Assembly: GCA_963674965.2 (NCBI GenBank)
Contig: CAXXFL010000007.1
Coordinates: 32,001-96,000, forward strand
Direction: 5' to 3'
DNA from: a bacterium
GTDB taxonomy: Bacteria > RBG-13-61-14 > DATKZS01
DNA: 64,000 nt
The stretch's first letter is position 1, and each line of letters begins with the position of its first letter. This document shows, in pieces, positions 18,242 through 37,474 of this stretch. The notes beneath the pieces are model-generated. The model was not told where the DNA came from and did not search any database. It saw nothing but the letters and a program-made list of their open reading frames with translations. The translations under genes and the position numbers were made by a program.

Positions 18242-18640
18242 TTATTCTTCTTTCTTTTTCTTCTTGGCTTTTTTCTTGGGCTCATCGTCGGAGACCAGCT
18301 CGATGATGGCCATTTCGGCCGAGTCTCCGCGCCGGGGCCCGAGCTTGACCACGCGGGTGTATCCGCCCGGCCTTTCCTGGTAACGGGGCGCGATCTCGTC
18401 GAAGAGCTTATGGACCACGTCCTTTTCGTACATCACGGCCAGCGCCTGCCGCCTGGAGTGTAGATCGCCCTTTTTGCCGAGGGTGATCATCTTGTCGGCC
18501 AGACTTCTGAGTTCCTTGGCCCTTGGCAGGGTGGTCTCTATTCTTCCATGTTTTATAAGCGCCGTTACCATATTGCGAAACATCGCCTGCCTGTGGGCGG
18601 TTTCCCGGGCAAAGCGCCTTGTTTTAATAGCGTGCCGCAT
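18242..18640 (-). CDS. rplQ: 50S ribosomal protein L17
   Basis: MRH...ITLGK...[10 protein letters not shown]. Confidence 0.97.
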
Positions 18641-18643
18641 GGC

Positions 18644-19654
18644 TTATCCCCCTTTAATAAGGTTCTTGTCGTACCGGGGATCGGGGAAATTATCAACCTT
18701 CATTCCCAGTTGAAGCCCCATCATACTCAGTACTTCTTTTATTTCGTTCAAGGACTTCCTTCCGAAGTTCTTGGTTTTCAACATCTCGGCCTCGGTCTTT
18801 TGCACCAGCTCGCCGATGATCCTTATGTTCGCGTTCTTAAGGCAGTTGGCCGCCCTGACGCTGAGCTCGAGCTCGTCCACGCTACGATAGAGGTTGGGGT
18901 CCATATCGTGCAGTTCCTCGATCTCCTCCTCCACCGTCTCGACGTCCACCTTGTCGTCGAAGTTGACGAAAATCCCGAGTTGGTCCTTTAAAATTTTGGC
19001 GGCGTAGCCCACCGAGTCGGCCGGCATGACCGCCCCGTTGGTCCAGACCTCGAGGATCAGCTTGTCATAGTCGGTGATCTGGCCCACCCTGGCGTTGGTC
19101 ACGCGGTAATTGACCTTGCGCACGGGCGAGAAAATCGAGTCGATGGGAATGGCCCCGACCGGCAGTTCCTCGTCCTTGTTCCTCTCCGCGGGAACGTATC
19201 CCTTGCCCATCTTGACCCACATCTCCATGCGTAGGGTCGCGTTCTCGTCCAGGGTGGCGACGTGCGCCTCGGGATTTAGTATCCTCACGCTGGGGTCGGC
19301 CTGGATGTCCCCGGCCCTTACTATGGCCGGGCCCTTGGCGTCGAGAGTGATCGACCTCTTGGCGTCCCCGGAGTAATTGAGGAGGACCTCCTTGAGGTTG
19401 AGGATGATCTCGGTCACGTCCTCGGAGACCCCGGGCACGGTGGAGAACTCGTGAAGCACTCCTTCCATCTTCACGGCCACGATGGCCGCCCCCTGGAGAG
19501 AGGACAGGAGCACCCTGCGAAGAGCGTTGCCGAGAGTGATGCCGAAGCCGCGCTCGAGGGGTTCCGCCGTGAACTTGCCGTATACTCCAGTAGCCGAGTC
19601 GGCCTCGAGTTCAAGTTGTTTCGGCTTTATCAGGTTCCGCCAGTTACGGTGCAT
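18644..19654 (-). CDS. rpoA: RNA polymerase subunit alpha
   Basis: [28 protein letters not shown]. Confidence 0.98.
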
Positions 19655-19699
19655 TATTTATCCCTCCCTAGGATGGAACAAACCGGCCCTCGAGGCCGA

Positions 19700-20329
19700 T
19701 TACTTGGAGTAAAGCTCGACGATCAAGTTCTCGTTGATCGGCATGGTTATGTCCTCGCGAGCCGGATACTCCTTGAGCGTGCCCTTGAAGTTCTCGACGT
19801 CAAGATCGAGCCACCTGGACACGCCGCCCCGTTTCTGAACGTTCTCCAGGGCGGACTGGAAAGCCTTGCTCTTCCTGCTCTTCTCTTTTACCTCGATCAC
19901 GTCCCCCTCGGATACCAGATACGACGGTATATTGACCTTCTTGCCGTTCACCAGGAAATGCCCGTGACGAACGAGTTGGCGGGCCTCGTTCCTGCTGCCG
20001 GCGAAGCCCAGGCGATAAACCACGTTGTCAAGACGCCTCTCGAGAAGGACCAGAAGGTTATAGCCCGTCACGCCCTTCATAAGGTCGGCCTTGGCGAAGT
20101 AGTTGCGGAACTGGGACTCGAGAAGTCCGTAAATCCTCTTGACTTTCTGCTTCTCTCGAAGCTGCATCCCATAGTCGGAATGCTTTATCCTTCTGTCGCC
20201 GTGCTGTCCCGGCGGTTTGGCTCTCCTGTCCACGGAGCACTTGTCCGAATAACACCTCTCGCCCTTCAGATAGAGCTTGAGACCTTCCCTCCTGCAAAAA
20301 CGGCAAACGGCTTCACGATACCGGGCCAC
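19700..20329 (-). CDS. rpsD: 30S ribosomal protein S4 (Cys-containing form)
   Basis: MARY...CRFCRRE...[14 protein letters not shown] start. Confidence 0.98.
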
Positions 20330-20364
20330 GTATGCACCTCCTTAATAAAAGCGGGATAATCCCG

Positions 20365-20754
20365 TTAAACCCTGCGCCTTTTCGGCGGACGGCAGCCATT
20401 GTGGGGAATGGGAGTCACGTCCTTGATCAAGGTCACCTTGAGACCCGTGGACTGGAGGGCCCGGAGGGCCGACTCGCGTCCCGAACCCGGTCCCTTGACC
20501 AGGACGTCCACGCTCTTCATGCCGTGCTCCTGGGCGCGGCGGGCGGCCTCCTGGGCGGCCTGCTGGGCGGCGAAGGGCGTGCTTTTCCTCGAGCCCTTGA
20601 ACCCCACCATGCCGGCGCTCAGGCAGGACACGGTGTTCCCGGTCCGGTCGGTGATGGTAATAATCGTGTTGTTGAAGGAACTCTGAATATGGACCACGCC
20701 GTGCTCGATATTCTTCTTGACCTTCTTTTTTCCGCGTTCTTTCTTCCTGGGCAT
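20365..20754 (-). CDS. rpsK: 30S ribosomal protein S11
   Basis: [25 protein letters not shown]. Confidence 0.98.
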
Positions 20755-20785
20755 ATTTTCTCCCCGTTCCTAATGGAACCGAACC

Positions 20786-21163
20786 TTATTTCTTGGTGGC
20801 CTTCTTCTTGCCGGCTATGGCCTTTCTCGGCCCCTTCCTGGTCCTGGCGTTGGTGTGGGTATTCTGTCCCCTCACCGGCAGTCCCCGCCGATGCCTCAGG
20901 CCCCGGTAGCAGCCCATGTCCATGAGCCGCTTGATGTTCATGCTGACTTCCTTGCGCAGCTCTCCCTCGACCTTGTACTTCGAGTCGATTATCTGACGGA
21001 TGGCCGCGACCTGGTTCTCGTCCAGGTCGTTGCTCCGGGTGGCCGGCTCCAGGCCGGCCTCCTCGACTATCGAAAGCGCCGTGGTCTTGCCAATGCCGTA
21101 GATATAGGTCAAGGATACGACGATGGGCTTGTTGGGCAAATCAACGCCGGCGATTCTAGCCAT
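20786..21163 (-). CDS. rpsM: 30S ribosomal protein S13
   Basis: [25 protein letters not shown]. Confidence 0.98.
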
Positions 21164-21187
21164 GTTTCCTCCTCATGCTCACTTGGA

Positions 21188-21301
21188 TCAACCCTGCCGC
21201 TGCTTGTGGCGGGGGTTCTTGCAGATAACGCGCACGACGCCGCGGCGTTTGACTATCTTGCAATCTTTGCAGCGCTTTTTCACTGAAGCTTGCACCTTCA
21301 T
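21188..21301 (-). CDS. rpmJ: 50S ribosomal protein L36 (37 aa, below ORF-track cutoff)
   Basis: Hand translation [37 protein letters not shown]. Confidence 0.97.
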
Positions 21302-21363
21302 TTCCGATTCCTTTCAATGCGCCCGGGGGCGCCGCGTTATGCCTTACGAAAGTCCGGGAGAAT

Positions 21364-21585
21364 TCATCTCCTGAACGTTATCCTTCCACGCGTGGGATCG
21401 TACGCGTTGATCTCGACCGTGACCTTGTCGCCCGGCACTATCTTGATATAGTGCATCCGCATCTTGCCGGATATGTTCGCCAAAAGCTTGTGCCCGTTGG
21501 GAAGCTCGACCCTGAACATCGCGTTTGGCAGGGCTTCTTTTACCTCGCCCTCTATTACGACCACGTCGTCCCTATCCTTCGCCAT
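21364..21585 (-). CDS. infA: Translation initiation factor IF-1
   Basis: [22 protein letters not shown]. Confidence 0.97.
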
Positions 21586-21644
21586 GCAAACCCCTTTTGC
21601 AGGATTGATAAATCACCGCCTCCCGCGGCGTTGGCCAGCGACCG

Positions 21645-22397
21645 TTACCAGTCGCTCAAAACGTCCGGACCATGGTCCGTCACGGCCACCGACCTCTCGA
21701 AGTGCGCCGAGGGCCTGCCGTCAGCCGTGACCGCGGTCCAACCGTCCTCCAGTACCTTCACGTCGGGAACGCCGGCGTTTATCATCGGCTCGATGGCCAG
21801 GACCATTCCCTCCACCAGTTTATTGTTCGGTCTCGGGCGGCCGCAGTTGGGGACCTGGGGCTCCTCGTGCATCTTGCGCCCGATGCCGTGGCCAACGAAC
21901 TGGTATACCACCGAGAAACCGTTGGCCTCCGCGTGACCCTGCACCGCCTCCGCTATATCGGAGAGGTGGTTGCCGGGGACCATTTTTAAAACGGCCCGCT
22001 CCAGGCATTCCCGGGTCACCTCGATCAGCTTTTTCTTTTCCTCGCCCACCTCGCCGATGGCGAAGGTCATGGCCGCGTCGCCCACGTAGCCGCCGCGAAC
22101 GGCCCCGAAGTCGACGCTGAGGACGTCTCCGTCCTTTAAGACCCGTTCCTCACTGGGGATGCCGTGGACCACCTCCTCGTTGATGGAGGCGCAAAGCACC
22201 GCCGGGTATCCCCTGTAACCCAGGAAAGCCGACTCGGCCTTCCTTTTCTCGAGTATCCTTCTGGCGCGCCCGTCAAGTTCCATGGTGCTTACGCCCGGCC
22301 TGGCGAAAGCCTTGATGTCCTCGAGCACCTCCACCACCACCCGGTTGGCCTCGCGGAGGACCTCGATTTCCTTCCTGGTCTTGAGGACTACGCCCAA
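21645..22397 (-). CDS. map: Type I methionyl aminopeptidase
   Basis: CASINEEVVHGIP, GHGIG, AIEPM, SAHFE. Confidence 0.96.
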   Translation of the reverse strand: MGVVLKTRKEIEVLREANRVVVEVLEDIKAFARPGVSTMELDGRARRILEKRKAESAFLGYRGYPAVLCASINEEVVHGIPSEERVLKDGDVLSVDFGAVRGGYVGDAAMTFAIGEVGEEKKKLIEVTRECLERAVLKMVPGNHLSDIAEAVQGHAEANGFSVVYQFVGHGIGRKMHEEPQVPNCGRPRPNNKLVEGMVLAIEPMINAGVPDVKVLEDGWTAVTADGRPSAHFERSVAVTDHGPDVLSDW

Positions 22398-22401
22398 ACC
22401 G

Positions 22402-23046
22402 TCAATCTTCCAGGGCCTTCATGATGGCGTCGGTGATGCCGTTGATATCGCCCACGCCGGGAATGTCCTTGACGATGCCCTTTTTGCCGTAATAGTCCTT
22501 AAGGGGGGACGTCTGATCGTGATACACGCCAAGGCGGTTCCTGATGGTCGCCTCGTTGTCGTCGTCCCGCTGGTAAAGCTCGCCGCCGCACTTGTCGCAG
22601 ACGCCGTCTTTTTTCGGCTTCTGGAACTCGAGGTGATACATGGCGCCGCATCCCTTGCAGGTGCGCCTTCCGCCCAGTCTCTTGACCACCTCGTCGTCGG
22701 GCACCTCGATGCTGACGACCTTGTCGATCTTCTTGGACATGCCCTCGAGGGTCTTGTCCAGTGCCTCGGCCTGGGGCACGGTGCGGGGGAACCCGTCAAG
22801 GATAAAGCCCTTGGCGCAATCGGACTCGGCCAGCCTCTCCTTGACCATGCCGATGACCACCTCGTCGGGAACGAGCTTGCCCGCGTCCATGAATTCCTTG
22901 GCCTTCTTGCCAAGCTCGGTGCCGTTCTTTACCGCCGCGCGCAGCAGGTCGCCCGTGGATATCTGCGGAATGCCGTACTTCTCTATAAGCCTTTTAGCCT
23001 GGGTCCCTTTGCCGCAACCTGGCGGTCCGAGCAATATCAAGTTCAC
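22402..23046 (-). CDS. adk: Adenylate kinase (zinc-LID type)
   Basis: GPPGCGKGTQ, LDGFPR, CKGC...CDKC. Confidence 0.97.
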   Translation of the reverse strand: MNLILLGPPGCGKGTQAKRLIEKYGIPQISTGDLLRAAVKNGTELGKKAKEFMDAGKLVPDEVVIGMVKERLAESDCAKGFILDGFPRTVPQAEALDKTLEGMSKKIDKVVSIEVPDDEVVKRLGGRRTCKGCGAMYHLEFQKPKKDGVCDKCGGELYQRDDDNEATIRNRLGVYHDQTSPLKDYYGKKGIVKDIPGVGDINGITDAIMKALED

Positions 23047-23096
23047 TTCATCCCTCCTTGATCGAAATACTGATCCGACGCGATATTGTTAAAGGG

Positions 23097-24422
23097 CTAC
23101 CTGCCCCTTCTTCCCTTCATCTTGGGTCCCTTGGGTCCCAGGAACCCGTCGTAGTGGCGGGTGATCATGTGGGCCTCGATCTGGGAGGCCGTGTCCATGG
23201 CCACGCCCACCACGATGAGAAGGCCCGTTCCGCCGAAGTAGAACGGTATTCCCACCCATCCCATCAGCACGGCGGGAAGCACGCAAACGGCCACCATATA
23301 GAGCGCGCCCCCGACGGTGATCCTGGTCAGGATGCGGTCGATAAAGTCGGCCGTGTTCTGTCCCGGCCTCACGCCGGGTATGTATCCGCCGTGTTTCTTC
23401 AGATTGTCGGCCATATCGACCGGGTTGATCTGAACGGCGGTGTAAAAGAACGTAAAGAAGATAATAAGTATAGCATAAACGGTGTTATATTGCCAGGACA
23501 CCGGGCTCATGGACGAGGAGAACCACTGGGCCCAGTTGGAGTCGGACTCTCCGAAAATGCCCGCGATGCTGGCGGGAAAGGTCAGCATGCTCGAGGCGAA
23601 GATGGGGGGAATGACTCCCGCCGGGTTCACCTTGAGGGGAAGGTGGGTCTTGACGCCGCGATACATCTTGCGGCCCACGGTCCGGGCCGGGTACTGGACC
23701 TGAATCTTCCGCTGGGCCCTCTCGACGTAGACGATGGCCCCTATTACGACCACCATGCCTATCCCCACCAGAAGCAACGTAATGATATCGAGCTCTCCCG
23801 TCCGGTACTGGGAAAGGGTCTGGTAAATGCCCACGGGCACTCGGGCCACGATACCGGCGAAAATGATAAGGGAAATGCCGTTACTGATGCCCCGCTCGGT
23901 AATCTGCTCGCCCAGCCACATGAGAAGGGCCGTGCCGGCGGTCAGGGTTATGATGGTCATAACCACGAACCTGATTCCCGGGTCGGGCACGACCGGCATC
24001 TGTCCGGCGCTCCATCCCCGAAGCATGCCGATGATGGCCACGCTCTGGATGGCCGAGAGCACGATGGTCAAGTACCTGGTGTATTGGGTGATTTTCTTCC
24101 TGCCTACCTCGCCTTCCTTTTGCAGGCGCTCGAGATAGGGAAAAACCACGGCCAGAAGCTGCAGGATAATGGAAGCGGTAATATAGGGCATGATCCCGAG
24201 GGCGAACACGCTCATATTGAGGAACCCGCCGCCGGTAAAGGTGTTTAACATGCTGAAAAGTCCCGCAGACTGGGACTGCTCGAACATGGCTTTGAGGGCG
24301 GCCGAGTTGATGCCCGGGATCGGAATATGCACTCCGAGCCTGCAGACGGCCAGTATGGCCACCGTGAAAAGCAGGCGGCGCTGCAGCTCGGGAATCTTGC
24401 CTATATTTGTCCAGCCCGACAT
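23097..24422 (-). CDS. secY: Preprotein translocase subunit SecY
   Basis: ALGIMPYITASII; WLGEQITERG; GGYIPGVRPG. Confidence 0.98.
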   Translation of the reverse strand: MSGWTNIGKIPELQRRLLFTVAILAVCRLGVHIPIPGINSAALKAMFEQSQSAGLFSMLNTFTGGGFLNMSVFALGIMPYITASIILQLLAVVFPYLERLQKEGEVGRKKITQYTRYLTIVLSAIQSVAIIGMLRGWSAGQMPVVPDPGIRFVVMTIITLTAGTALLMWLGEQITERGISNGISLIIFAGIVARVPVGIYQTLSQYRTGELDIITLLLVGIGMVVVIGAIVYVERAQRKIQVQYPARTVGRKMYRGVKTHLPLKVNPAGVIPPIFASSMLTFPASIAGIFGESDSNWAQWFSSSMSPVSWQYNTVYAILIIFFTFFYTAVQINPVDMADNLKKHGGYIPGVRPGQNTADFIDRILTRITVGGALYMVAVCVLPAVLMGWVGIPFYFGGTGLLIVVGVAMDTASQIEAHMITRHYDGFLGPKGPKMKGRRGR

Positions 24423-24425
24423 GGG

Positions 24426-24872
24426 TTATATTACCTCTACCTTGCCCCCCGCCGCCTCGATTTTCGCCTTGGCCTTCTCGCTGAAGGCGTGGGCCTTGAC
24501 GGTCAGGGCTTGTTTAAGTTCGCCGTTTCCAAGGATTTTCACCATGTCTTTGCCCTTCATGAGCCCGGCTGATTTCATCTGCTCGATTCCCACCTCGCTG
24601 CCCGCGGGGAAGGCGTTCAACGCCTCGACGTTAATCTCGGCGCGCTCGATCCTGTGGATATTGTTGAAACCCCTTTTGGGAAGACGGCGGGCCAGAGGCA
24701 TCTGTCCGCCCTCGAAGGCCCGGTGGGTCTTTCCCTTTCCGGCCCTCGCGTTCTGTCCCTTGTGTCCCGCTCCGCAGGTTTTTCCCCATCCGGACGACTC
24801 GCCTCTGCCCACGCGCTTCGCTTTCCGGTTCTTTCCCTTGGGAGGAGTGAGGTTTGAAAGGTCGGTCGCCAT
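24426..24872 (-). CDS. rplO: 50S ribosomal protein L15
   Basis: RVGRG...FEGGQMPL..RLPKRGF. Confidence 0.97.
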   Translation of the reverse strand: MATDLSNLTPPKGKNRKAKRVGRGESSGWGKTCGAGHKGQNARAGKGKTHRAFEGGQMPLARRLPKRGFNNIHRIERAEINVEALNAFPAGSEVGIEQMKSAGLMKGKDMVKILGNGELKQALTVKAHAFSEKAKAKIEAAGGKVEVI

Positions 24873-24873
24873 T

Positions 24874-25056
24874 TTATTCCTCCACTTCCACCATGTGGAT
24901 GACTTTTTTTACCATGCCGCGAATCTCGCGGGTATTGGGCCTTTCAACCGTCTGGTTCATCCGGTTTAGTCCGAGTCCCTTCAGCACGGCCTTGTGCTCC
25001 TTGGGCCGGTTGATGGGGCTTCTTTTAAGCGTAATTTTTATAGTCGGGTTGGCCAT
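24874..25056 (-). CDS. rpmD: 50S ribosomal protein L30
   Basis: ITLKRSPI...LGL...IRGMV; synteny. Confidence 0.95.
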   Translation of the reverse strand: MANPTIKITLKRSPINRPKEHKAVLKGLGLNRMNQTVERPNTREIRGMVKKVIHMVEVEE

Positions 25057-25084
25057 ATTGTCACCTTCATGTCCCGTCTTTGCC

Positions 25085-25585
25085 TTACAGTTCGTCGGGC
25101 GATTTTCCTCGCCTGGCGGCCACCGCCTCCCTGGTCTGCAGTTTGAGCAGGGCGTCGAAAGCGGCCTTGACCACGTTCTGGGGGTTGTTGGTCCCGATGG
25201 CCTTGGTCAAAAGGTTGGTAATCCCGGCCGCCTCGACCACGGCCCTGACCGGTCCGCCGGCGATGACGCCGGTACCGGGGGACGCGGGCCGCATGAGCAC
25301 GCGGGCCGCTCCGCATCGTCCGATCTGCTCGTGGGGGATGGTCCCCCCCTCGACGAGCCCGACCTGGACCATGGAGCCGCGGGCCTTCTCGACGCCCTTC
25401 CTGATCGCCTCGGGCACCTCGTTGGCTTTTCCCTTGGCCACTCCGACCCTTCCCTTTCCGTCTCCAACCACCACCAGGGCCGAAAAGGAGAACCTTTTGC
25501 CTCCCTTTACGACTTTCGCCACCCTGCCGATATGGACGACCTTATCCCTTAATTCGACTTCCTGTTCACCGTACTCGATCGCCAC
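25085..25585 (-). CDS. rpsE: 30S ribosomal protein S5
   Basis: [22 protein letters not shown]. Confidence 0.98.
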
Positions 25586-25605
25586 GGTAATCCTCCCGTT
25601 TCGGG

Positions 25606-25968
25606 TTAAAAATTCAGCCCGGCTTCCCTGGCAGCGTCGGCCAGGGCCTTTAGCCTGCCGTGATATAAAAAGCCGTTGCGGTCGAACACGACTTTTTCAA
25701 CTCCGGCCGCCTTGGCCTTCTCGGCTATCATCTTGCCGACGGCCTTGGCCGCTTCCTTGTCGTTGGTGCTTTTGAGCTGCCCTTTCAGGTCCTTGGACAA
25801 GGTGCTGGCCGCGGCCAGGGTTTTGCCTTCCTCGTCGTTTATGACCTGAACGTAAATATGACGCTGGCTCCTGAAAACGCAGAGCCGGGGACGCTCCTGG
25901 CTACCCCTGACCTTGCGCCGGACCCGACCTTGCCGAATGATTCTTTTTTCATTCCTGGACTGTGCCAT
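25606..25968 (-). CDS. rplR: 50S ribosomal protein L18
   Basis: [22 protein letters not shown]. Confidence 0.97.
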
Positions 25969-25992
25969 GACCCTCTCCACTAATTAAACGCG

Positions 25993-26547
25993 TCACGAGC
26001 CGGGGGCGCCGCCGCCCACGCCGGACTTGCCGGCTTTCCTGCGAACGTATTCGCCCTGATACCTGACGCCCTTGCCCTTGTAAGGCTCGGGGGGACGCCA
26101 GTTCCTGATCTTGGCGGCCAGGTCTCCCACTTGCTGCTTGTCCACGCCGCTAACGACGATGGTGTCCTTTTCCATGGTCACGTCCAACCCCTCGGGGATG
26201 GGGACCTCCTTGGGGAAGGCGTAGCCCACGCTCAATTTCAGGACCTTACCCTGGACCTCGGCCTTGTAGCCCACGCCGATTATATCCAGCTTCTTGACGT
26301 AGCCCTCGGTGACGCCGACCACGGCGTTGCCGACCAGAGACCGGTAAAGTCCCTGGAACATCCTGGACTGGCGCGAGTCGTCGGGCCTTGAAACCCTTAC
26401 TACTTCCCCCTCTATCTCGATGGAGCAGGGAGGATTTACCTCAACCGTCAGCTCGCCCTTGGGCCCCTTCACCTTGAAGAGGGGGGCCCGCCACGAGACC
26501 TCGGCCCCCTTGGGCACGGTTATCGGTACTTTACCCACTCTTGACAT
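25993..26547 (-). CDS. rplF: 50S ribosomal protein L6
   Basis: MSRVGK; PEPYKGKGVRY. Confidence 0.97.
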   Translation of the reverse strand: MSRVGKVPITVPKGAEVSWRAPLFKVKGPKGELTVEVNPPCSIEIEGEVVRVSRPDDSRQSRMFQGLYRSLVGNAVVGVTEGYVKKLDIIGVGYKAEVQGKVLKLSVGYAFPKEVPIPEGLDVTMEKDTIVVSGVDKQQVGDLAAKIRNWRPPEPYKGKGVRYQGEYVRRKAGKSGVGGGAPGS

Positions 26548-26574
26548 GACCTTATCTCCTGACCTTCGCGTTCC

Positions 26575-26970
26575 TTACCAGATCGAGCAGAGTATCTCGC
26601 CGCCCACTCGCCGCTCCCTTGCCTTCTTGTCGGTCATGACGCCCTTGGAGGTCGAGATAATCGATACTCCAAGTCCGTTCTTGACCTCGGGCAGGTCGTC
26701 AACCTTGGCGAAGACCCTGCGCCCGGGCTTGGATTCCCTCTTGATCTTCATGATGATGGGGTTTCCGTCCGGGTCGTATTTAAGGAACACCTTGAGCACG
26801 CCCTGCTTGCCGTCCTGGGCGAGCTTGAAATTTTTTATATAACCCTCGGCCTTGAGTATCCGCGCGATTTCCAGCTTAAGCTTGCTCGCGGGAACGTCGA
26901 CCGACTCGTGCCTGGCCGAGAGACCGTTTCTGATCCGGGTCAACATGTCCGCTATGGGATCGGTCATCAT
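26575..26970 (-). CDS. rpsH: 30S ribosomal protein S8
   Basis: [23 protein letters not shown]. Confidence 0.98.
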
Positions 26971-26985
26971 TTTCCATACTCCCCC

Positions 26986-27171
26986 TTACCAACTCGATTT
27001 GACCATGCCGGGTATCTTGCCCTCGAGCGTGAGCTTCCTCAGGCAGATTCTGCACATGTCGAAACGCCGGTAATAAGCCCGGGGACGCCCGCAGATCGGG
27101 CACCGGTTATAATCCCTGACCTTGAACTTCTTGGGCCTCTTCGCCTTGGCCATAAGCGATTTCTTCGCCAC
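26986..27171 (-). CDS. rpsN: 30S ribosomal protein S14, zinc-binding type Z
   Basis: 61 aa, RCPICGR...CRIC. Confidence 0.97.
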
Positions 27172-27186
27172 TTTTAGACTCCTCCG

Positions 27187-27729
27187 TTAGTTGGCGCGGA
27201 AGGGCATGCCCAGTCGCTTGAGAAGGCTTCTGGCCTCCTCGTCGTTCTGCGCGGTTGTGCAGATGGTTACGTTAAGTCCCTGGATGCGCTCAACCTTGTC
27301 GTAATTGATCTCGGGGAAAATGATCTGTTCCTTGATTCCCAGCGAGTAGTTTCCCCTTCCGTCGAAAGCCCGGGGGCTCACTCCTCCGAAGTCCCTCACC
27401 TGGGGCAGGGCGATGCTCACGAGCCGGTCGAGGAACTCGTACATCCGGGCCCCCCGGAGCGTCACCATGACGCCGATGGGCATGCCCTTTCTCAGCTTGA
27501 AGGTGGCGATGGATTTTCTCGCCTTGGTCACCACCGGCTTCTGGCCCACGATCTGGGTCAACTCGGCGACGGCCCCGTCAATAAGCTTGACGTTCTGGAC
27601 CGCCTGCCCGAGGCCGAGGTTGACGGTAACCTTGGTAAGGCGGGGGACCTGCATGACGTTCTTGTAGGAAAACTCCTCCATCATCGCCTTGACGATTTCC
27701 TCGTTGTATATTTTCTTGAGCCTGGTCAT
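27187..27729 (-). CDS. rplE: 50S ribosomal protein L5
   Basis: [24 protein letters not shown]. Confidence 0.98.
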
Positions 27730-27741
27730 TTTGGCCTTCCC

Positions 27742-28062
27742 TTAATCGATATGTTCTTCGCACTTCCCGCAAACGCGAACGCGGGAGCCGCTGTCGAGCT
27801 TCTTGAACCGGGGCCTGGTGGTCTTGTTGCACTTGGGGCAAACCAGGGCCAGGTTGTCAAGCCGGATGGGCGTTTCCCTCTCGATGCGCCCGCCCTGGGG
27901 GGCCATGGGGTGTCCGGGACGAAGGTGCCGGGTCTGGAAATTGATTTTTTCCACCAGGGCCTTTTCCTTCTTGTGGTCGACCTTGATGACCTTGCCCTTC
28001 TTGCCCCGCTCTCTTCCCGAGAGCACCGTGACCTGATCGCCTTTTCTTATCTTGTAAGCCAT
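27742..28062 (-). CDS. rplX: 50S ribosomal protein L24
   Basis: IRKGDQVTVLSG..GKKGKV (KOW). Confidence 0.96.
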   Translation of the reverse strand: MAYKIRKGDQVTVLSGRERGKKGKVIKVDHKKEKALVEKINFQTRHLRPGHPMAPQGGRIERETPIRLDNLALVCPKCNKTTRPRFKKLDSGSRVRVCGKCEEHID

Positions 28063-28082
28063 TTTTTCACCTGTATCGGGGC

Positions 28083-28451
28083 CTAAAGGACCTCGGGGGC
28101 GAGCGAGACTATCTTCATGAAACGCTTGGCCCGAAGTTCCCTGGCCACCGGACCGAACACGCGGTTTCCGATGGGCTCGAGCTGGTTGTTAAGGAGCACG
28201 GCCCCGTTGTCGTCGAAGCGCACGTAAGTCCCGTCGGGACGGCCGATTTCCTTGGACGTTCTCACCACCACGGCTCGGACGACCTCGCCCTTTTTCACCT
28301 TCGAGGTGGGGATGGCCTCCTTGACGGACGCCACGATTATGTCTCCCACCCGCGCGTAGCGGCGGCGGGTCCCGCCCAGCACCTTGATGCACTGGACCTT
28401 TTTGGCCCCCGAGTTGTCGGCCACGGTCAGCATGGATTCAACCTGGATCAT
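28083..28451 (-). CDS. rplN: 50S ribosomal protein L14
   Basis: [15 protein letters not shown]. Confidence 0.98.
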
Positions 28452-28469
28452 GTTTTATCCTCCCTCGCC

Positions 28470-28754
28470 TCAGTCCGCTCGCCTGATGACCTTGAGAAGG
28501 CGCCAGCGCTTGTCCTTCGAGAGGGGACGCGTCTCGATGATCTGAATGAGGTCTCCGGTCCGGCAGGAGTTCTCCTGGTCGTGGGCCTTGACGTTCTTCC
28601 ATACCCGCGTGTACTTCTTATACTTGCGATGAAGCTTTATCCGCTCGATCCTGACCACGATCGTCTTGTCCATCTTGTCGCTCACCACGACGCCGGTCCT
28701 GACCTTGCGATGTCCCCGCGGCTTGTCGGCGCGGGTCGAAACCGCGTTTTCCAT
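28470..28754 (-). CDS. rpsQ: 30S ribosomal protein S17
   Basis: GVVVSDKMDKT; ETRPLSKDKRW. Confidence 0.97.
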   Translation of the reverse strand: MENAVSTRADKPRGHRKVRTGVVVSDKMDKTIVVRIERIKLHRKYKKYTRVWKNVKAHDQENSCRTGDLIQIIETRPLSKDKRWRLLKVIRRAD

Positions 28755-28809
28755 TTCCTTACTCCTTAGCCCCCGTGTTTATTGGCTCTTGTGTCATTAC
28801 TATCCCGGT

Positions 28810-28998
28810 TTATAGTCCTCTTTCCCGGACCACGGTTTTCACTCGCGCCAGGTCCCGCCTGGTCATTCTCAGGCGGGCGGTGTTCTCGAGCTGGCCCGTG
28901 GCGTGCTGGATGCGAAGGTTGAAAGCCGCGCGCTCGAGGTCCTTTAGCTTGTCCATAAGCTCCTCGTCGGTCATCTCTCTTATCTCGGTCGGCTTCAT
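28810..28998 (-). CDS. rpmC: 50S ribosomal protein L29
   Basis: MKPTEIRE...FNLRIQHATGQLEN; ATG overlaps rplP TGA. Confidence 0.95.
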   Translation of the reverse strand: MKPTEIREMTDEELMDKLKDLERAAFNLRIQHATGQLENTARLRMTRRDLARVKTVVRERGL

Positions 28999-29411
28999 CA
29001 ATAATCCTCCAGCTCGACGATCTGGGTGGGAATGGGAAGCTTGCTGCCGGCCAGCTTGAGCGCGGCGCGGGCCATTTTCTCGTCCACTCCCTCGAGCTCG
29101 AACAGGACCCTTCCGGGCTTGATGGGGGCCACCCACTCCTCGACCGATCCCTTGCCTTTACCCATCCTGGTTTCGAGGGGTTTCTTGGTAAGGGGCTTGT
29201 CGGGGAAAATCCTTATCCAGATTTTGCCGGCCCTTTTCACGTGCCTGGTAATGGCGACGCGGCTGGCCTCGATCTGCCTGGCGGTTATCCATCCTGCGCC
29301 CATGGCTTGCAGTCCGTAGCTTCCGAAGGCCAGGGTGGACCCTCGTCTGGCGATCCCCCTTATCCTTCCCTTTTGAAGTTTTCTATATCTTGGTTTCTTG
29401 GGCTGTAACAT
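28998..29411 (-). CDS. rplP: 50S ribosomal protein L16
   Basis: MLQPK; RMGKGKG. Confidence 0.98.
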
Positions 29412-29446
29412 TGCCCCTCTCCTTTACTCGCGTATCTTACAATCCA

Positions 29447-30103
29447 TCAAAGCTTGACGGGAGGAGCGTTTCCGCCCTTCCACACCTCGTTCTTGAACAC
29501 CCATACCTTGACGCCGATGACGCCGTAGGTGGTCCTGGCCTGGGTGTACCCGTAGTCGATGTCGGCCCGGAGCGTGTGCAGGGGCACCCGGCCCTGGCGG
29601 TACCACTCGCTCCTGGCGATCTCCGCGCCGCCCAGCCTGCCGCCGCACTGGATTTTCACGCCCTGGGCCCCGAACTTGAGGGCCAGGCTGATGGCTTTCT
29701 TCATGGCCCTTCTGAAAAGGACCCGCCGCTCGATCTGGAGCGCCACGTTCTCGGCGATGAGCTGGGCGTCCGTCTCCATGGGCCTGACCTCATGGATGTT
29801 GATGAAGACCTCGGCCTCGGTGAAGCGCTGGAGCTCGTGCCGCAGCACGTCGACCTCCTGGCCCCGCTTGCCGATCACGATGGCCGGCTTGGCCGTGTGG
29901 ATGTTGACCCGGCACTTGTTGGTGCTGCGCTCGATGACGATGTCCGAGATACCCGCGTGATAGAGCTTCTTCTTGATGTACTCGCGGATTTTCAAGTCCT
30001 CGTGCAGGAGCTTGGAGTAGTTCTTCTTGTCGGCGTACCAACGCGAGTCCCAGGTCTTGATATAACCCAGTCTAAAGCCGATGGGATGAGTTTTCTGGCC
30101 CAA
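29447..30103 (-). CDS. rpsC: 30S ribosomal protein S3
   Basis: [24 protein letters not shown]. Confidence 0.98.
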
Positions 30104-30116
30104 GACGTCCTCCCTT

Positions 30117-30455
30117 TTATTCCCTTTCAGCGACCACTATCGTAATCTTGCTGGTTCTTTTTCTGATGGGCGTGGCCCTGCCCATGGCCCGCGGCATCCA
30201 CCGCTTCATGGTCGGGCCCTCGTCCACGAAAACGTTCTTGACCACCAGGGCGTCGGCGTCAAGCCCGTGATTTTCCTCCGCGTTGGCCACGGCCGAGCTG
30301 AGAAGCTTCCTGAGCGGACGGCTCGCCCCTCTCGGGTTGTGAGCCAGCGAGGCCAGGGCCTCCTCGACCTTCCTGCCCTTGATGGTTTCGGCGACCAACC
30401 TTACCTTGAACGGGCTCATTCGAAGGTAATTAAGCTTAGCGACGGCATCGGTCAT
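30117..30455 (-). CDS. rplV: 50S ribosomal protein L22
   Basis: SAVANA; VDEGP; PRAMGRA. Confidence 0.97.
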
Positions 30456-30496
30456 TTATTTTTCCTCCCGTTCTCAAATATCTTCCCAAGAACGGC

Positions 30497-30778
30497 TTAC
30501 TTCTTGAGCTTGGACTTGCGGTCCCCCGCGTGCCCGAAGAAGCTCCTGGTGGGAGAAAACTCCCCCATCTTGTGCCCCACCATGTTCTCGGTGATCAGCA
30601 CGGGTATAAACTTCTTTCCGTTGTGGATCGTAAAGGTCAGCCCGATCATGTCCGGCGTGACGGTGCTGCGCCTGCTCCAGGTCTGGATGGGGCGCTTGCT
30701 TCCGGTATCCTTGGCCTTCTGGACCTTCCTTTGCAGGTGGTCGTCCACGTAAGGGCCTTTTTTAAGGGACCGCGCCAT
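30497..30778 (-). CDS. rpsS: 30S ribosomal protein S19
   Basis: [22 protein letters not shown]. Confidence 0.98.
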
Positions 30779-30790
30779 TATTATCCTCCG

Positions 30791-31615
30791 TTACTTCTTT
30801 TTCCTGCCATGCATAATGTATTTGTCGGTTCTCGGGTTCTTCCTGGTTTTCTTGCCCTTGGTTATTTTGCCCCACGGGGTCTGGGGGTGGTTTCCCTTGT
30901 TCCTGCCCTCGCCCCCGCCGTGGGGATGGTCGACCGGGTTCATGGCCACGCCGCGCACGATCGGCCTTCTGCCCAGCCAGCGCTTCCTGCCGGCCTTGCC
31001 GATGCTGATGTTGCCGTGGTCCGGGTTCGAGACCTGGCCCACCGTGGCCCAGCAGTCCTGGAGCACCAGGCGCTGCTCGCCGCTGGGCATCCGGATCAGG
31101 GCGTACTTTCCCTCCTTGGCCATGAGCTGGCCGAAGGTCCCGGCGCTCCTTATAAGCTGCCCGCCCTTGCCGATCTTGTGCTCGAGGTTGTGAAGGATCG
31201 TGCCCAGGGGCATGTTCCGGAGGGGAATATGGTTGCCGGGCTTGATGTCCACGTTCTCGCCCGCCACGACCTTGTCCCCCACGCCCAGGCGCTGGGGCGC
31301 CAGGATGTATCTCTTCTCCCCGTCCGCGTAATGAAGCAGGGCGATCCAGGCGCTGCGGTTCGGGTCGTACTCGACGCTGGCCACCTTGGCCGGAATCTCG
31401 AGCTTGTCGCGCTTGAAGTCGATCACGCGGTAGCGCCTCTTATGCCCCCCCCCGCGGTGCCAGACGGTGACGCGGCCGGTGTTGTTCCTGCCCCCGCTCT
31501 TCTTGAGCGAGCGTATGAGGGTCTTCTCCGGTTCCTTGGCGCCTTCCTTGTTAAAGACCGTCTGGGTCATGAACCTGCGGCCCGGCGAAGTCGGTTTGTA
31601 TTTCTTAATAGCCAA
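30791..31615 (-). CDS. rplB: 50S ribosomal protein L2
   Basis: [25 protein letters not shown]. Confidence 0.98.
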
Positions 31616-31636
31616 GATATCTCTCCCCGAGTATTC

Positions 31637-31930
31637 TTACACGCTCTCGTAGAAGTCGATGCGGTCGCCTTCCTTAAGCGTCACGATCGCCTTCTTCCAG
31701 CTCTTCTTGTGCCCGAAAGTCATTCCCCGCCGCACGGGCTTGCCGCGCATGCGCATGGTGTTGACTCTCACCACCTGGACCTTGAATATGGACTCGACGG
31801 CCCGCTTGATCTGGTGCTTGCCCGCGCGGGGGTCGACCTCGAAGGCCACCTGGTTGTGGCCCTCCTCCTGGATGGTGCTCTTCTCCGTCACGATGGGCCT
31901 TTTGATGATATGGTAGTCCTGAAGCGTCAT
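31637..31930 (-). CDS. rplW: 50S ribosomal protein L23
   Basis: IIKRPIVTEKS; WKKAIVTL; ATGA overlap with rplD. Confidence 0.96.
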   Translation of the reverse strand: MTLQDYHIIKRPIVTEKSTIQEEGHNQVAFEVDPRAGKHQIKRAVESIFKVQVVRVNTMRMRGKPVRRGMTFGHKKSWKKAIVTLKEGDRIDFYESV

Positions 31931-32583
31931 GACAGGGCCTCCTGTATCGCCTGGGCGGCGGCCTTGGTAAGGATCAGCTTGTCGTGGAGAAGCACGTCGC
32001 GAACGTTGATTCCCACCGCCCTGATGGCCTTGATCCGGGGAAGGTTCCTGGCCGAAAGCTCGACGTTTTTGTCGGCCTCCGCGATAACCACCAGGGCGTT
32101 CTCCCCGATGCCCGCGTCGCCCAGCCAATCCAGCAACTCGGCCGTCTTGATCCGCTCCAGGGTAAGCTCGCTGATAAGCGTCAGCTTCTCGTCCTTCCTC
32201 TTTTGAGTGAGCGCCGACTTGAGGGCGGCCTTTCTCACCTTTTTGGGAACGTTGATCGAGAAGTCCCTGGGATGGGGACCGAAGATGACGCCGCCGCCGC
32301 GCCAAATGGGAGACTTCCTCATGCCGGACCTGGCCCGGCCCGTGCCCTTCTGGCGCCAGGGCTTCTTCTTGGACCCGGCCACGTCGCCCCGCGTCTTCGA
32401 GCTGCCCGTGCCCGCCCGATGCTTGGCCTGCTGGTATTTCACGGCCTCCAGCATGAGATGGGGCTTGACTTCCACGTCGAACACGGACGGGTTAAGGTCG
32501 AATTGATCGACCACCTCCCCTTGCCGGTTCAGAACGTCAACCCTTATCGGCTCGCCCGAGCCGGAAGTTTTTTCTGTATCCAT
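31927..32583 (-). CDS. rplD: 50S ribosomal protein L4
   Basis: KPWRQKGTGRAR; WRGGGVIFGP; short N-terminal extension. Confidence 0.97.
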   Translation of the reverse strand: MDTEKTSGSGEPIRVDVLNRQGEVVDQFDLNPSVFDVEVKPHLMLEAVKYQQAKHRAGTGSSKTRGDVAGSKKKPWRQKGTGRARSGMRKSPIWRGGGVIFGPHPRDFSINVPKKVRKAALKSALTQKRKDEKLTLISELTLERIKTAELLDWLGDAGIGENALVVIAEADKNVELSARNLPRIKAIRAVGINVRDVLLHDKLILTKAAAQAIQEALS

Positions 32584-32633
32584 GACTTGCCGCCTTCCAA
32601 ATCCTCGTCGATATTAGCCTGGTCTAAAGCCGC

Positions 32634-32942
32634 CTAAAGCTTGATCTCGATGTCGATGCCCGCCGAGAGATCGAGCTTGCCAAGGGCGTCGACCGTCGCC
32701 TGGGTCGGCTCGAGAATATCGATCAGCCGCTTGTGAGTCCGAATCTCGAACTGCTCCCGGCTTTTCTTGTCGATATGCGGAGACCGAAGAACGCAAAACT
32801 TGTTAATCTCCGTCGGAAGCGGAATCGGACCGGCAACCCTGGCCCCCGTTCTTTTCGCGGTACCGACTATATCTCTCACTGACTGATCGAGAAGATTATG
32901 ATCGTAGGCCTTAAGCCGTATCCGGATCCTTTGAGTCGCCAT
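32634..32942 (-). CDS. rpsJ: 30S ribosomal protein S10
   Basis: [22 protein letters not shown]. Confidence 0.98.
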
Positions 32943-33031
32943 CACAGCTCCTTCATTTCTAACGTCGCGACCGGCTTCATACTTCCGTCCGGGCGCATCA
33001 AATGTTTATCCATCCGTTATTATTGCCTAAA

Positions 33032-34237
<1,206 letters not shown>

Positions 34238-34315
34238 CCCTATTGTCCTCCTTCATTCGCGTACCCGGGCATCTTCCCGGAAATAATTAAATTCTTCTCG
34301 CTCAAAGAGCGTATA

Positions 34316-36397
34316 TCAATAACCTCTCACCTTAAGCAGTACTTCCTTGAGCAGGTTAGTCGGCACCACGTCATAGCTGTTGAACTGCATGGTATAAGTT
34401 GCCCTTCCCTGGGAGAGCGACCTCAGCGAGTTGACGTACCCGAAAAGCTCGGCGAGGGGGGCCCTGGCCGTGTACACCTGGGCGCCGGACCTGGACTCGT
34501 TTCCCTCGATGTTTCCTCTCCTGGCGTTCAGGTCCCTGAGCACGTCTCCCACGTAGTCCTCGGGGGCCACTATCTCGAGCTTCATGATGGGCTCGAGCAG
34601 CACGGGAGAGCATTTTTTCGCGGCTTCCTTGAAGGCCAGGGAGGCCGCGGCCCTGAAGGCGATCTCCGATGAGTCTTCCTCATGGTACTTGCCGTCGAGG
34701 AGCGAGGCTTTCACGTCCACCACCGGGAAGCCGGCGAGGGGACCCACTTCCATGGCGTCCTTTACGCCCTTCTCGACCGCGGGTATATACTGGGTGGGAA
34801 CGGTCCCTCCCTTAATCCTGTTCTCGAAGACAAACCCGGCCCCGCGCTCGAGGGGCTCGAAGCTCATGTTGACTATTCCGTACTGTCCGTGTCCGCCGGT
34901 CTGCTTGACGAATTTCCCCTCGACCTCGGCCGCGCCGAGGAAGGTTTCCTTGTAAGCCACCTGGGGTTTTCCCACGTTGGCCTGGACCTTGAACTCGCGG
35001 AGCAGCCTGTCCACGACTATCTCGAGATGGAGTTCGCCCATGCCCTCGATGATGGTCTGTCCCAATTCCTCGTCGTAGCGGGCCCTGAAGCTGGGGTCCT
35101 CGACCATGAGCTTTTGCAGGGACGCGGCCAGCTTGTCCTGGTCGGCCCTGGTCTTGGGCTCGATGGCCACGGAGATGACCGTCTCGGGAAACTCGATGGA
35201 CTCGAGAAGCACGGGCGCTCCCACCTTGGTCAAGGTGTCGCCCGTGCCCGTGAACTTGAGGCCCACCACGGCCACGATGTCGCCGGCGTAAACCTCGGGC
35301 ACGTCCTCTTCCTTGACGGCGTGCATTTTGAGGAGTCGGCCCACCCTCTCCTTTTTGTCCTTGGTCGAGTTGTAAATCGTTTCCCCCGCCTTGATATGGC
35401 CGGAGTAAACCCGGACGAAAGTCATGGCCCCCTTGTGAGGGTCGTTCATCATCTTGAAGGCCAGCGCGGTAAAGGGCTCGTCGTCGCTGGCTTTTCTTTT
35501 TATCTGTTCTCCGGTTTTGGGTTTGATGGCGGTAATGGGTGGAACGTCGATGGGGGCCGGGAGGTAATTGACGACGGCGTCGAGGAGCGGCTGTACGCCT
35601 TTATTCCGGAAGGCCGAGCCGCAAAGCACGGGAAAGAAGCTTAGCTCGAGCGTGGCTCTCCTTATGGCCTCCATAATCTGGGTCTCGGAGACTTGTTCTC
35701 CCTCCAGATATGAGTCCATGAAGGTCTCGTCGTTTTCGGCCAGTGTCTCGAGCATAATTTCCCGCCAATAAAGCGCCTCTTCTTTAAGTTCCTCCGGGAC
35801 CGGCGTTTCTCTGAAACGCGCTCCCAGCGTCTCGTCGTCCCAGGTTATGGCCACCATCCTTATAAGGTCTATGACTCCCTTGAAGTCGGCCTCGACTCCA
35901 ATGGGAATCTGTATGGGCAGCGGAGTCGCCTTCAATCTTTTCTGGACCATTTCGAGCACGTTGGGGAAGTTCGCCCCTACTCGGTCCATTTTATTCACGA
36001 AGGCTATCCTGGGGACCTTGTATTTATCCGCTTGTCTCCAAACCGTCTCGGACTGAGGCTCGACGCCTCCATACGCGTCAAAGACGGCGATGGCCCCATC
36101 CAGAACCCGAAGGGACCTTTCAACCTCCATCGTGAAATCCACGTGGCCGGGCGTATCTATTATATTGATCCGGTGATCACGCCAGAAACAGGTGGTGGCG
36201 GCGGCGGTTATGGTTATGCCCCGCTCCTGTTCCTGTTCCATCCAGTCGGTTACGGTATTTCCCTCGTCGACGTTTCCGATTCGATAGGTAACCCCGGTAT
36301 AGAAGAGCATCCGTTCGGTCGTAGTTGTCTTGCCGGCGTCAATGTGTGCCATGATGCCGATATTACGGATTCTGTGTAATGGTACAACCCTACCCAA
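34316..36397 (-). CDS. fusA: Elongation factor G
   Basis: [28 protein letters not shown]; str-operon position. Confidence 0.96.
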
Positions 36398-36531
36398 GGG
36401 GCCCCTCTTTTATTCCTTGCCGCCGCGATGGACGTTCCGCCAATAGCAACGTTTGCCAGGATCATTTCCTTTCGATTCGAATGGCCTTGAAAACAAGGCC
36501 CGTCGTACAAAAAAATTGCCTTTTTATCCGC

Positions 36532-37005
36532 CTACCACCGGTAATGGGCGAAGGCCTTGTTGGCCTCGGCCATACGGTGGGTATCCTCTTTTTTCTTGAC
36601 CGCCGAGCCCCGGTTGTCGGACGCCTCGAGCAGTTCCATGGCCAGTTTTTCCCGCATGGTCCTCTCACTCCTCCTCTCGGAGGCGTACTTGATGAGCCAG
36701 CGGATGGCCAGGGTCTCCTGCCGGCGGGGACGAACCTCGATGGGCACCTGGTAGTTGGCGCCGCCCACGCGCCTGCTCTTGACCTCGAGCATGGGCTGGA
36801 CGTTCTTCAGGGCCTTCTTGAAGGTCTTGAGCGGATCGTCCTTGGTCTTCTGGGCGATCACGTCGAAAGCGCCGTATACTATCTGCTCGGCCAGGCTCTT
36901 TTTGCCGTCAAGCATGATGGCGTTCATGAACCTGGTCACCTGAGCGTCGTTATATACCGGATCGGGAATGAGTTCCCTTGTCTCAACTTCTCTTCTGCGC
37001 GGCAT
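36532..37005 (-). CDS. rpsG: 30S ribosomal protein S7
   Basis: [24 protein letters not shown]. Confidence 0.98.
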
Positions 37006-37102
37006 ATCATTAACCTTTTAACCGTTTCGTTTAACTGCCCTTCAAAAAATCGGCAAAAAAAAAGATCGAATCGCGAGCCTGAAATATCCGGCGATCCAAT
37101 CC

Positions 37103-37474
37103 TTACTTGGGCCTCTTGGCGCCGTACTTGGACCTGGCCTGCTTGCGGTTGGCCACGCCCTGGCTGTCCAGCGTGCCCCTGACGACGTGGTACCTGACGC
37201 CGGGAAGGTCCTTGACCCTGCCGCCCCGGATCAGCACCACCGAGTGCTCCTGAAGGCTGTGGCCCACGCCGGGGATATAGGTCGTGACCTCGATCCCGTT
37301 CGTCAGCCTCACCCTGGCCACCTTGCGCATGGCCGAGTTGGGTTTCTTGGGCGTAAAGGTCGTGACGCGCGTGCAGACGCCCCTTTTCTGGGGGCAGTTC
37401 TGAAGCGCGGGCGACTTGGTCTTCTTAACGACTTTTTTGCGTTCGTTCCTTATTAGCTGGTTAATCGTGGGCAT
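37103..37474 (-). CDS. rpsL: 30S ribosomal protein S12
   Basis: [26 protein letters not shown]. Confidence 0.98.

Follow-up and report, generated by a model that had tools for sequence, protein, structure and literature searches.

The S10-spc-alpha cluster and the rpsJ-rplD junction

The window, by which we mean the whole stretch of 64,000 nucleotides analysed here, carries on its minus strand a ribosomal protein gene cluster that runs from rpsL to rplQ (18242..37474). A Pfam scan of 37 ORFs found all members of this cluster in canonical order with the exception of rplC, the gene for ribosomal protein uL3, which alone is missing; an earlier note on this DNA had described the same order from rpsJ to rplQ. 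Directly upstream of rpsJ lies tuf (EF-Tu; 33032..34237, minus strand; Pfam GTP_EFTU, D2 and D3). The rpsJ gene itself (uS10; 32634..32945, minus strand) was identified by NCBIfam NF001861 (166.5 bits) and Pfam PF00338; its start is probably the ATG at 32942, which is preceded by AAGGAG, and its stop is the TAG at 32634-32636. It is followed on the same strand by rplD (uL4, 218 aa; 31927..32583; NCBIfam equivalog TIGR03953, 236.6 bits), rplW (uL23; 31637..31930; NF004363, 119.6 bits) and rplB (uL2; 30791..31615; TIGR01171, 413.1 bits). Farther along the cluster, rpsN (26986-27171, minus strand) encodes the short, 61-aa form of S14. As in the canonical S10 operon, rpsJ comes first after the str operon and tuf, but there is no rplC between rpsJ and rplD. 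The order rpsJ-rplC-rplD is among the most conserved gene orders in bacteria.

The usual place of rplC is taken by a spacer of 50 nt between the rpsJ stop and the rplD ATG (32584-32633, minus strand), just as the earlier note had it. No promoter-like or terminator-like site was found in this spacer on the minus strand. It contains a Shine-Dalgarno-like stretch, GGAAGG, located approximately 9 nt upstream of the rplD ATG (32583), in accordance with the purine-rich stretch noted previously. The N-terminal extension of rplD, estimated in the same note at about 10 aa, amounts to 11 aa relative to a solved uL4 of 207 aa (3j3v_E), since residue 15 of L4 aligns with residue 4 of that chain; there is no other in-frame ATG, GTG or TTG between the rplD ATG and codon 24. 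In E. coli, the S10 operon has an L4-responsive leader upstream of rpsJ. Here, a search of window positions 31137-34445 (L044) against Rfam at E<=0.1 matched no family and hence no ribosomal-protein leader, including one of the L4-responsive kind upstream of rpsJ. Leaders of that kind are described in the available text of PMC3616713 as having a narrow distribution.

A single uL3 gene on another contig

We searched the whole genome (G000; 6.5 Mb in 7 contigs, 97.6% complete, contamination estimate 1.11%) with the Pfam L3 model at E<=10. The contig that holds the window (C7) gave no L3 match, in line with the previous claim that the window has no L3-like ORF, and the search of the rest of the genome that the note had proposed returned one intact gene, located outside the window on contig C5 (G000:C5:346037-346705, minus strand, 222 aa). 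The two Pfam match rows on C5 are two stretches of one reading frame. A pseudogene or a second L3 copy was also considered and ruled out, as the C5 gene was the only one obtained genome-wide. Its product matches the bacterial uL3 model TIGR03625 (L3_bact) over profile positions 2-202 of 202 with 269.9 bits, above the curated equivalog cut-off of 142.9, and its residues 3-218 align to residues 8-219 of a solved bacterial uL3 (8crx_d, E 2.6e-67). Altogether, 55 distinct sequences of uL3 chains from solved ribosomes match it at E<=1e-30. Because this is the sole L3 gene in a genome that is 97.6% complete, its product presumably functions in the 50S subunit. In ribosome assembly, uL3 is one of the earliest proteins to associate with 23S rRNA.

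The contig that carries rplC is 874 kb long. The genes rnpA, yidC and jag lie on the opposite strand and converge on rplC, a neighbourhood that is repeated in a relative, G001. The GC content of rplC by codon position (0.60/0.41/0.82) resembles that of the neighbouring genes. A gene set for a trimeric-type [FeFe] hydrogenase is located approximately 1.5 kb from rnpA-yidC-jag (L003:1496-5687, minus strand). It encodes an Fe-only hydrogenase large subunit to which a small-subunit domain is fused, along with a Nuo51-like flavoprotein and a thioredoxin-like 2Fe-2S protein.

Upstream of rplC there are an ORF of 389 aa, a 209-bp tandem repeat and a gene for an fn3-repeat protein. The stop of the 389-aa ORF (L003:10191-11360, minus strand) overlaps the start region of rplC, and its 3′ end contains the predicted rplC promoter described below. 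Its sole match is a weak one to Lin1244_N (20.6 bits, below the cut-off of 25), and it was not found beside rplC in relatives; a 233-aa ORF beside rplC in G007 was considered as a relative of it and proved unrelated on comparison. The tandem repeat (L003:11621-13649, which is G000:C5:348120-350148) lies between this ORF and the fn3-repeat protein and consists of 9.7 head-to-tail copies of the 209-bp unit, which show 96% matches and are free of indels, all frames being open throughout. A sub-threshold match of these repeats to an miRNA family in Rfam (32 bits, where the gathering score is 268) was taken as chance. The fn3-repeat protein matches a phage tail-tip Ig-like domain. The 389-aa ORF, the repeats and the fn3-repeat protein may together be part of an inserted element.

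Predicted promoter and terminator of rplC

The rplC gene of G000 has a predicted promoter of its own, TTGACT-16-TATAAT, which agrees with the consensus at 11 of 12 positions and lies approximately 50 nt before the start codon; its TATAAT is at C5:346754-346759. A predicted intrinsic terminator, formed by an 11-bp GC-rich hairpin and a T-run (-19.9 kcal/mol), follows approximately 20 nt past the stop, the hairpin being located at C5:345992-346017. A promoter motif of the sigma-70 type (TTGAC[A/T], 16-18 nt, TAT...) is present upstream of rplC in all 10 genomes of the order in which the gene was found. When the 98 nt ending at the rplC start codon were aligned for these 10 genomes, TTG in the -35 element and TAT in the -10 element were invariant and the AC of TTGAC was kept in at least 90% of them; a Shine-Dalgarno stretch precedes every rplC start. 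Clear terminators 3′ of rplC were seen in only two of the 10 (G000 and G003), and in several genomes the downstream gene closely trails rplC, so that a monocistronic rplC is the layout of G000 and not of the order as a whole. No conserved RNA leader is predicted for the rplC 5′ UTR of approximately 40 nt, as RNAalifold returned 0 pairs for the 10-genome alignment, and Rfam gave no ribosomal-protein leader at the rplC locus (L003).

Distribution of the arrangement among relatives

In the taxonomy used, the phylum to which the genome belongs is represented by 13 species genomes, which fall into an order of 11 (G000-G010, in four families) and a sister order of two (G011 and G012). We compared the rpsJ loci of all 13. 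Throughout the order (11 of 11 genomes), rplD comes immediately after rpsJ, with rplW next, which answers the question of adjacency in relatives that had been raised with the original observation; both genomes of the sister order have rpsJ-rplC-rplD-rplW. Ten of the 11 genomes in the order yielded a lone rplC, with neither rpsJ, rplD nor rplW in its flanks. The only one in which no L3 was found is G010, which is 87% complete.

Despite the shared promoter motif, the neighbours of rplC vary within the order. In G000 and G001 the gene is convergent with jag; an alpha/beta hydrolase follows it in G002 and G004, a phosphofructokinase lies downstream in G003, and a DUF362 iron-sulfur protein comes after it in G006 and G009. 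In G007 an unknown ORF lies beside it, with a response-regulator diguanylate cyclase beyond. In G005, which represents one family, rplC is convergent with rplQ-rpoA (L037:192-2311): it lies tail to tail with these genes, just past the far end of the very cluster that it left. This position could be the relic of an inversion-type move.

The same combination of rpsJ-rplD adjacency and lone rplC occurs in a second, unrelated-looking phylum of 17 genomes (G040-G056, hereafter phylum B), which we came upon through G040, a genome drawn as an unrelated bacterium for comparison. In phylum B (loci L151-L165, L166-L179, L042 and L149), rpsJ, rplD and rplW are adjacent in all 15 genomes with an S10 match, and rplC stands alone in all 16 with an L3 match; where both genes are on one contig, the rpsJ block and rplC are 0.6-1.9 Mb apart. 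In 7 of 15 scanned loci of this phylum rplC follows uvrB, at times with a PilZ gene in between. We considered whether PilZ genes might indicate a synteny of rplC shared by the order and phylum B, and rejected this, as comparison of the PilZ proteins showed them to be unrelated (E 0.22 and 3.9). One genome of phylum B has a GC content of approximately 39%.

Outside these lineages the canonical succession prevails. rplD follows rplC in 19 of 20 loci of a "same domain" comparison, the exception being G040, and in 79 of 80 loci of a broad L3 search, the exception being L126. The latter (L126:3001-3618) is from a MAG labelled Deltaproteobacteria and has no rpsJ, rplD or rplW within 3 kb of rplC on either side. 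Other departures were also observed: G024 has rpsJ on another contig than rplC-rplD-rplW (L031 / L150), and in an Actinomycetota MAG (L062) rpsJ and rplC are approximately 2 kb apart.

Phylogeny of L3

Two sets of L3 sequences were used to ask whether the gene is native or foreign. The first, of 64 rows, comprised 12 sequences from the phylum, the 20 "same domain" loci and 32 of the 80 broad-search loci, which were picked by hand for phylum spread before any tree was made; close relatives were not among the matches of the broad search, which served only as an outgroup sample. In the resulting tree the L3 proteins of the order clustered and those of the sister order fell elsewhere, without strong support. 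When the order and its sister order were held together, the log likelihood was 24.6 better than that of the free quick tree (AU p 0.81). The groupings within the order were the same for L3 and for a control tree of S10+L4+L23, both of which contain the f1 clade, G002+G004, G005+G007 and G009+(G006,G008).

For the second set, of 58 rows, 16 long-branch or near-duplicate rows were removed and 10 of 15 new phylum-B sequences were added. Here the order grouped weakly with phylum B (SH-aLRT 80-84), in that 22 rows came together at 80 and the f3 trio joined 9 phylum-B rows at 84. In the matching S10+L4+L23 control tree, the order and its sister order grouped together (SH-aLRT 89). A clade of order and sister order was not rejected by the second L3 set (AU p 0.55), and a clade of order and phylum B, imposed on S10+L4+L23, was 19.5 log-likelihood units worse and likewise not rejected at 0.05 (p-AU 0.116). 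The L3 sequences are thus compatible with vertical descent of a relocated native gene, in the sense that such descent was not rejected. The placement away from the sister order in the free trees is, on the other hand, the pattern expected of a transferred L3, though it is statistically weak.

Origin of the separate rplC gene

The lone rplC is a real, old and clade-defining rearrangement of a very conserved operon. Considering what was observed, namely the arrangement of the genes, the presence of one uL3 copy, the occurrence of the trait among relatives and the promoter motif, we find it quite likely that the native gene moved out of the S10 operon in the ancestor of the order and was kept as a separate, promoter-bearing unit. 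Under this interpretation rplC would have left the operon in the common ancestor of the order, most likely by the placement of a copy elsewhere followed by loss of the copy in the operon, with rpsJ being left beside rplD with a short spacer. The route is inferred, as are the activity of the motif in transcription and any selective cause of the move. The gene would then have persisted as a separate transcription unit behind a strong sigma-70-type promoter, to which in G000, where the gene lies convergent to rnpA-yidC-jag, a putative intrinsic terminator of its own is added, and the promoter-rplC unit may have been inherited vertically while the surrounding genes changed. The remaining S10-spc-alpha cluster is presumably read through from upstream of rpsJ, so that synthesis of L3 would be uncoupled from the polycistronic mRNA of the other large-subunit proteins. 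Of the possibilities put forward in the earlier note, relocation under separate control is borne out by the single C5 gene with its predicted promoter and terminator, by the junction shared across the order and by the canonical arrangement in both genomes of the sister order; its alternative of a xenologous copy is not required by the AU tests.

That alternative would have an ancestor of the order gaining a promoter-bearing rplC, for example from a relative of phylum B, and later losing the copy in the operon. It would account for free L3 trees that join the order with phylum B, away from the sister order, at a point where the in-operon proteins place the order with that sister order. However, the tree support is weak, the likelihood is as good or better when order and sister order are constrained to one clade, the rplC loci of the order and phylum B have no common synteny, and the codon-position GC of the gene looks native; we therefore regard displacement by a foreign gene as improbable. 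An extended form of the same idea, to which we give equally little credence, treats the lone rplC as a promoter-carrying cassette that passed between deep lineages (the order and the phylum of G040), with the resident copy then being lost. If true, a core ribosomal protein that is universal would have been replaced laterally, enabled by its own promoter, and this would explain why lineages with a lone rplC join in the L3 trees and not in the trees of operon proteins. As vertical descent was not rejected by the AU test in either L3 set, native relocation remains the best reading of these data.

Two further explanations touch on the number of events and on the data themselves. There may have been a single departure from the operon, in an ancestor shared by the order and phylum B, as this rare trait extends throughout both lineages, their L3 proteins fall together with weak support, and S10+L4+L23 do not reject the corresponding clade. 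Yet this would require either that the canonical sister order is misplaced in the taxonomy or that it regained the canonical block, and a returning rplC is unlikely to have landed exactly between rpsJ and rplD; moreover, the control tree and the taxonomy used favour order plus sister order, and the rplC contexts differ between the lineages, all of which makes a single older event distinctly improbable. As to the data, the assembly consists of 7 contigs from an uncultured organism, and one could imagine that rplC was deleted from the cluster during assembly or editing, or that the contig carrying rplC was binned from another organism. We found no evidence in favour of such an artefact. A Logan contig of 5760 nt spans window positions 32200-33000 with 0 differences and without an inserted joint at the spacer. 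The Logan contigs were built independently and come from two runs of one sample, from which the assembly itself may derive; in runs X4 and X6 (soil or sediment, with a small word share) coverage was limited to short, conserved parts of rpsJ and rplD, and these runs are uninformative about this organism. The clean assembly or editing deletion that the earlier note had offered as an alternative is excluded because the junction is shared by the whole order, in 11 independently assembled genomes, and is unchanged in the Logan contigs. Mispairing of contigs is hard to reconcile with the L3 relationships inside the order, which mirror those of the in-cluster proteins, with the position of rplC on a large contig by rnpA-yidC-jag that is repeated in G001, or with the low contamination estimate. 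Taken as a whole, an artefact is very improbable indeed.

Comparison with known systems

If L3 is made as we propose, an entire order, and separately an entire small phylum, would produce this protein off its own predicted promoter and not from the shared S10 message. Such lineages would constitute a natural experiment on whether co-transcription is needed for ribosomal protein balance. The lone rplC is also a clean, rare genomic character that may serve as a marker for poorly known uncultured lineages, and for annotation pipelines and marker-gene binning it implies that an L3 "missing" from the cluster does not mean that the genome is incomplete.

Breaks in the S10 cluster have precedents. 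In cyanobacteria, rpsJ sits with the str operon. Concerning deletions and rearrangements of the cluster, the available text of PMC8046335 states that single genes may be "lost or effectively translocated," and in that text the treatment of cluster rearrangement makes no mention of rplC. Nor did we find a description of rplC leaving the S10 operon in the full-text literature covered, from which subscription journals are mostly absent. Departure of rplC from the operon has occurred more than once in bacteria; it is a further example of a type of event already known and does not represent a new system. The arrangement in our genome resembles other lineage-specific breaks (G024, the phylum of G040 and L126) in being a stable, old change of order in which the displaced gene keeps its function, and differs in that only an internal gene, rplC, has moved and both flanking genes have closed up. 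Compared with the canonical S10 operon, it retains all members but rplC in the same order and on the same strand, after tuf and running into the spc and alpha operons, whereas the second gene of the operon, rplC, is found on another contig behind a predicted promoter of its own.
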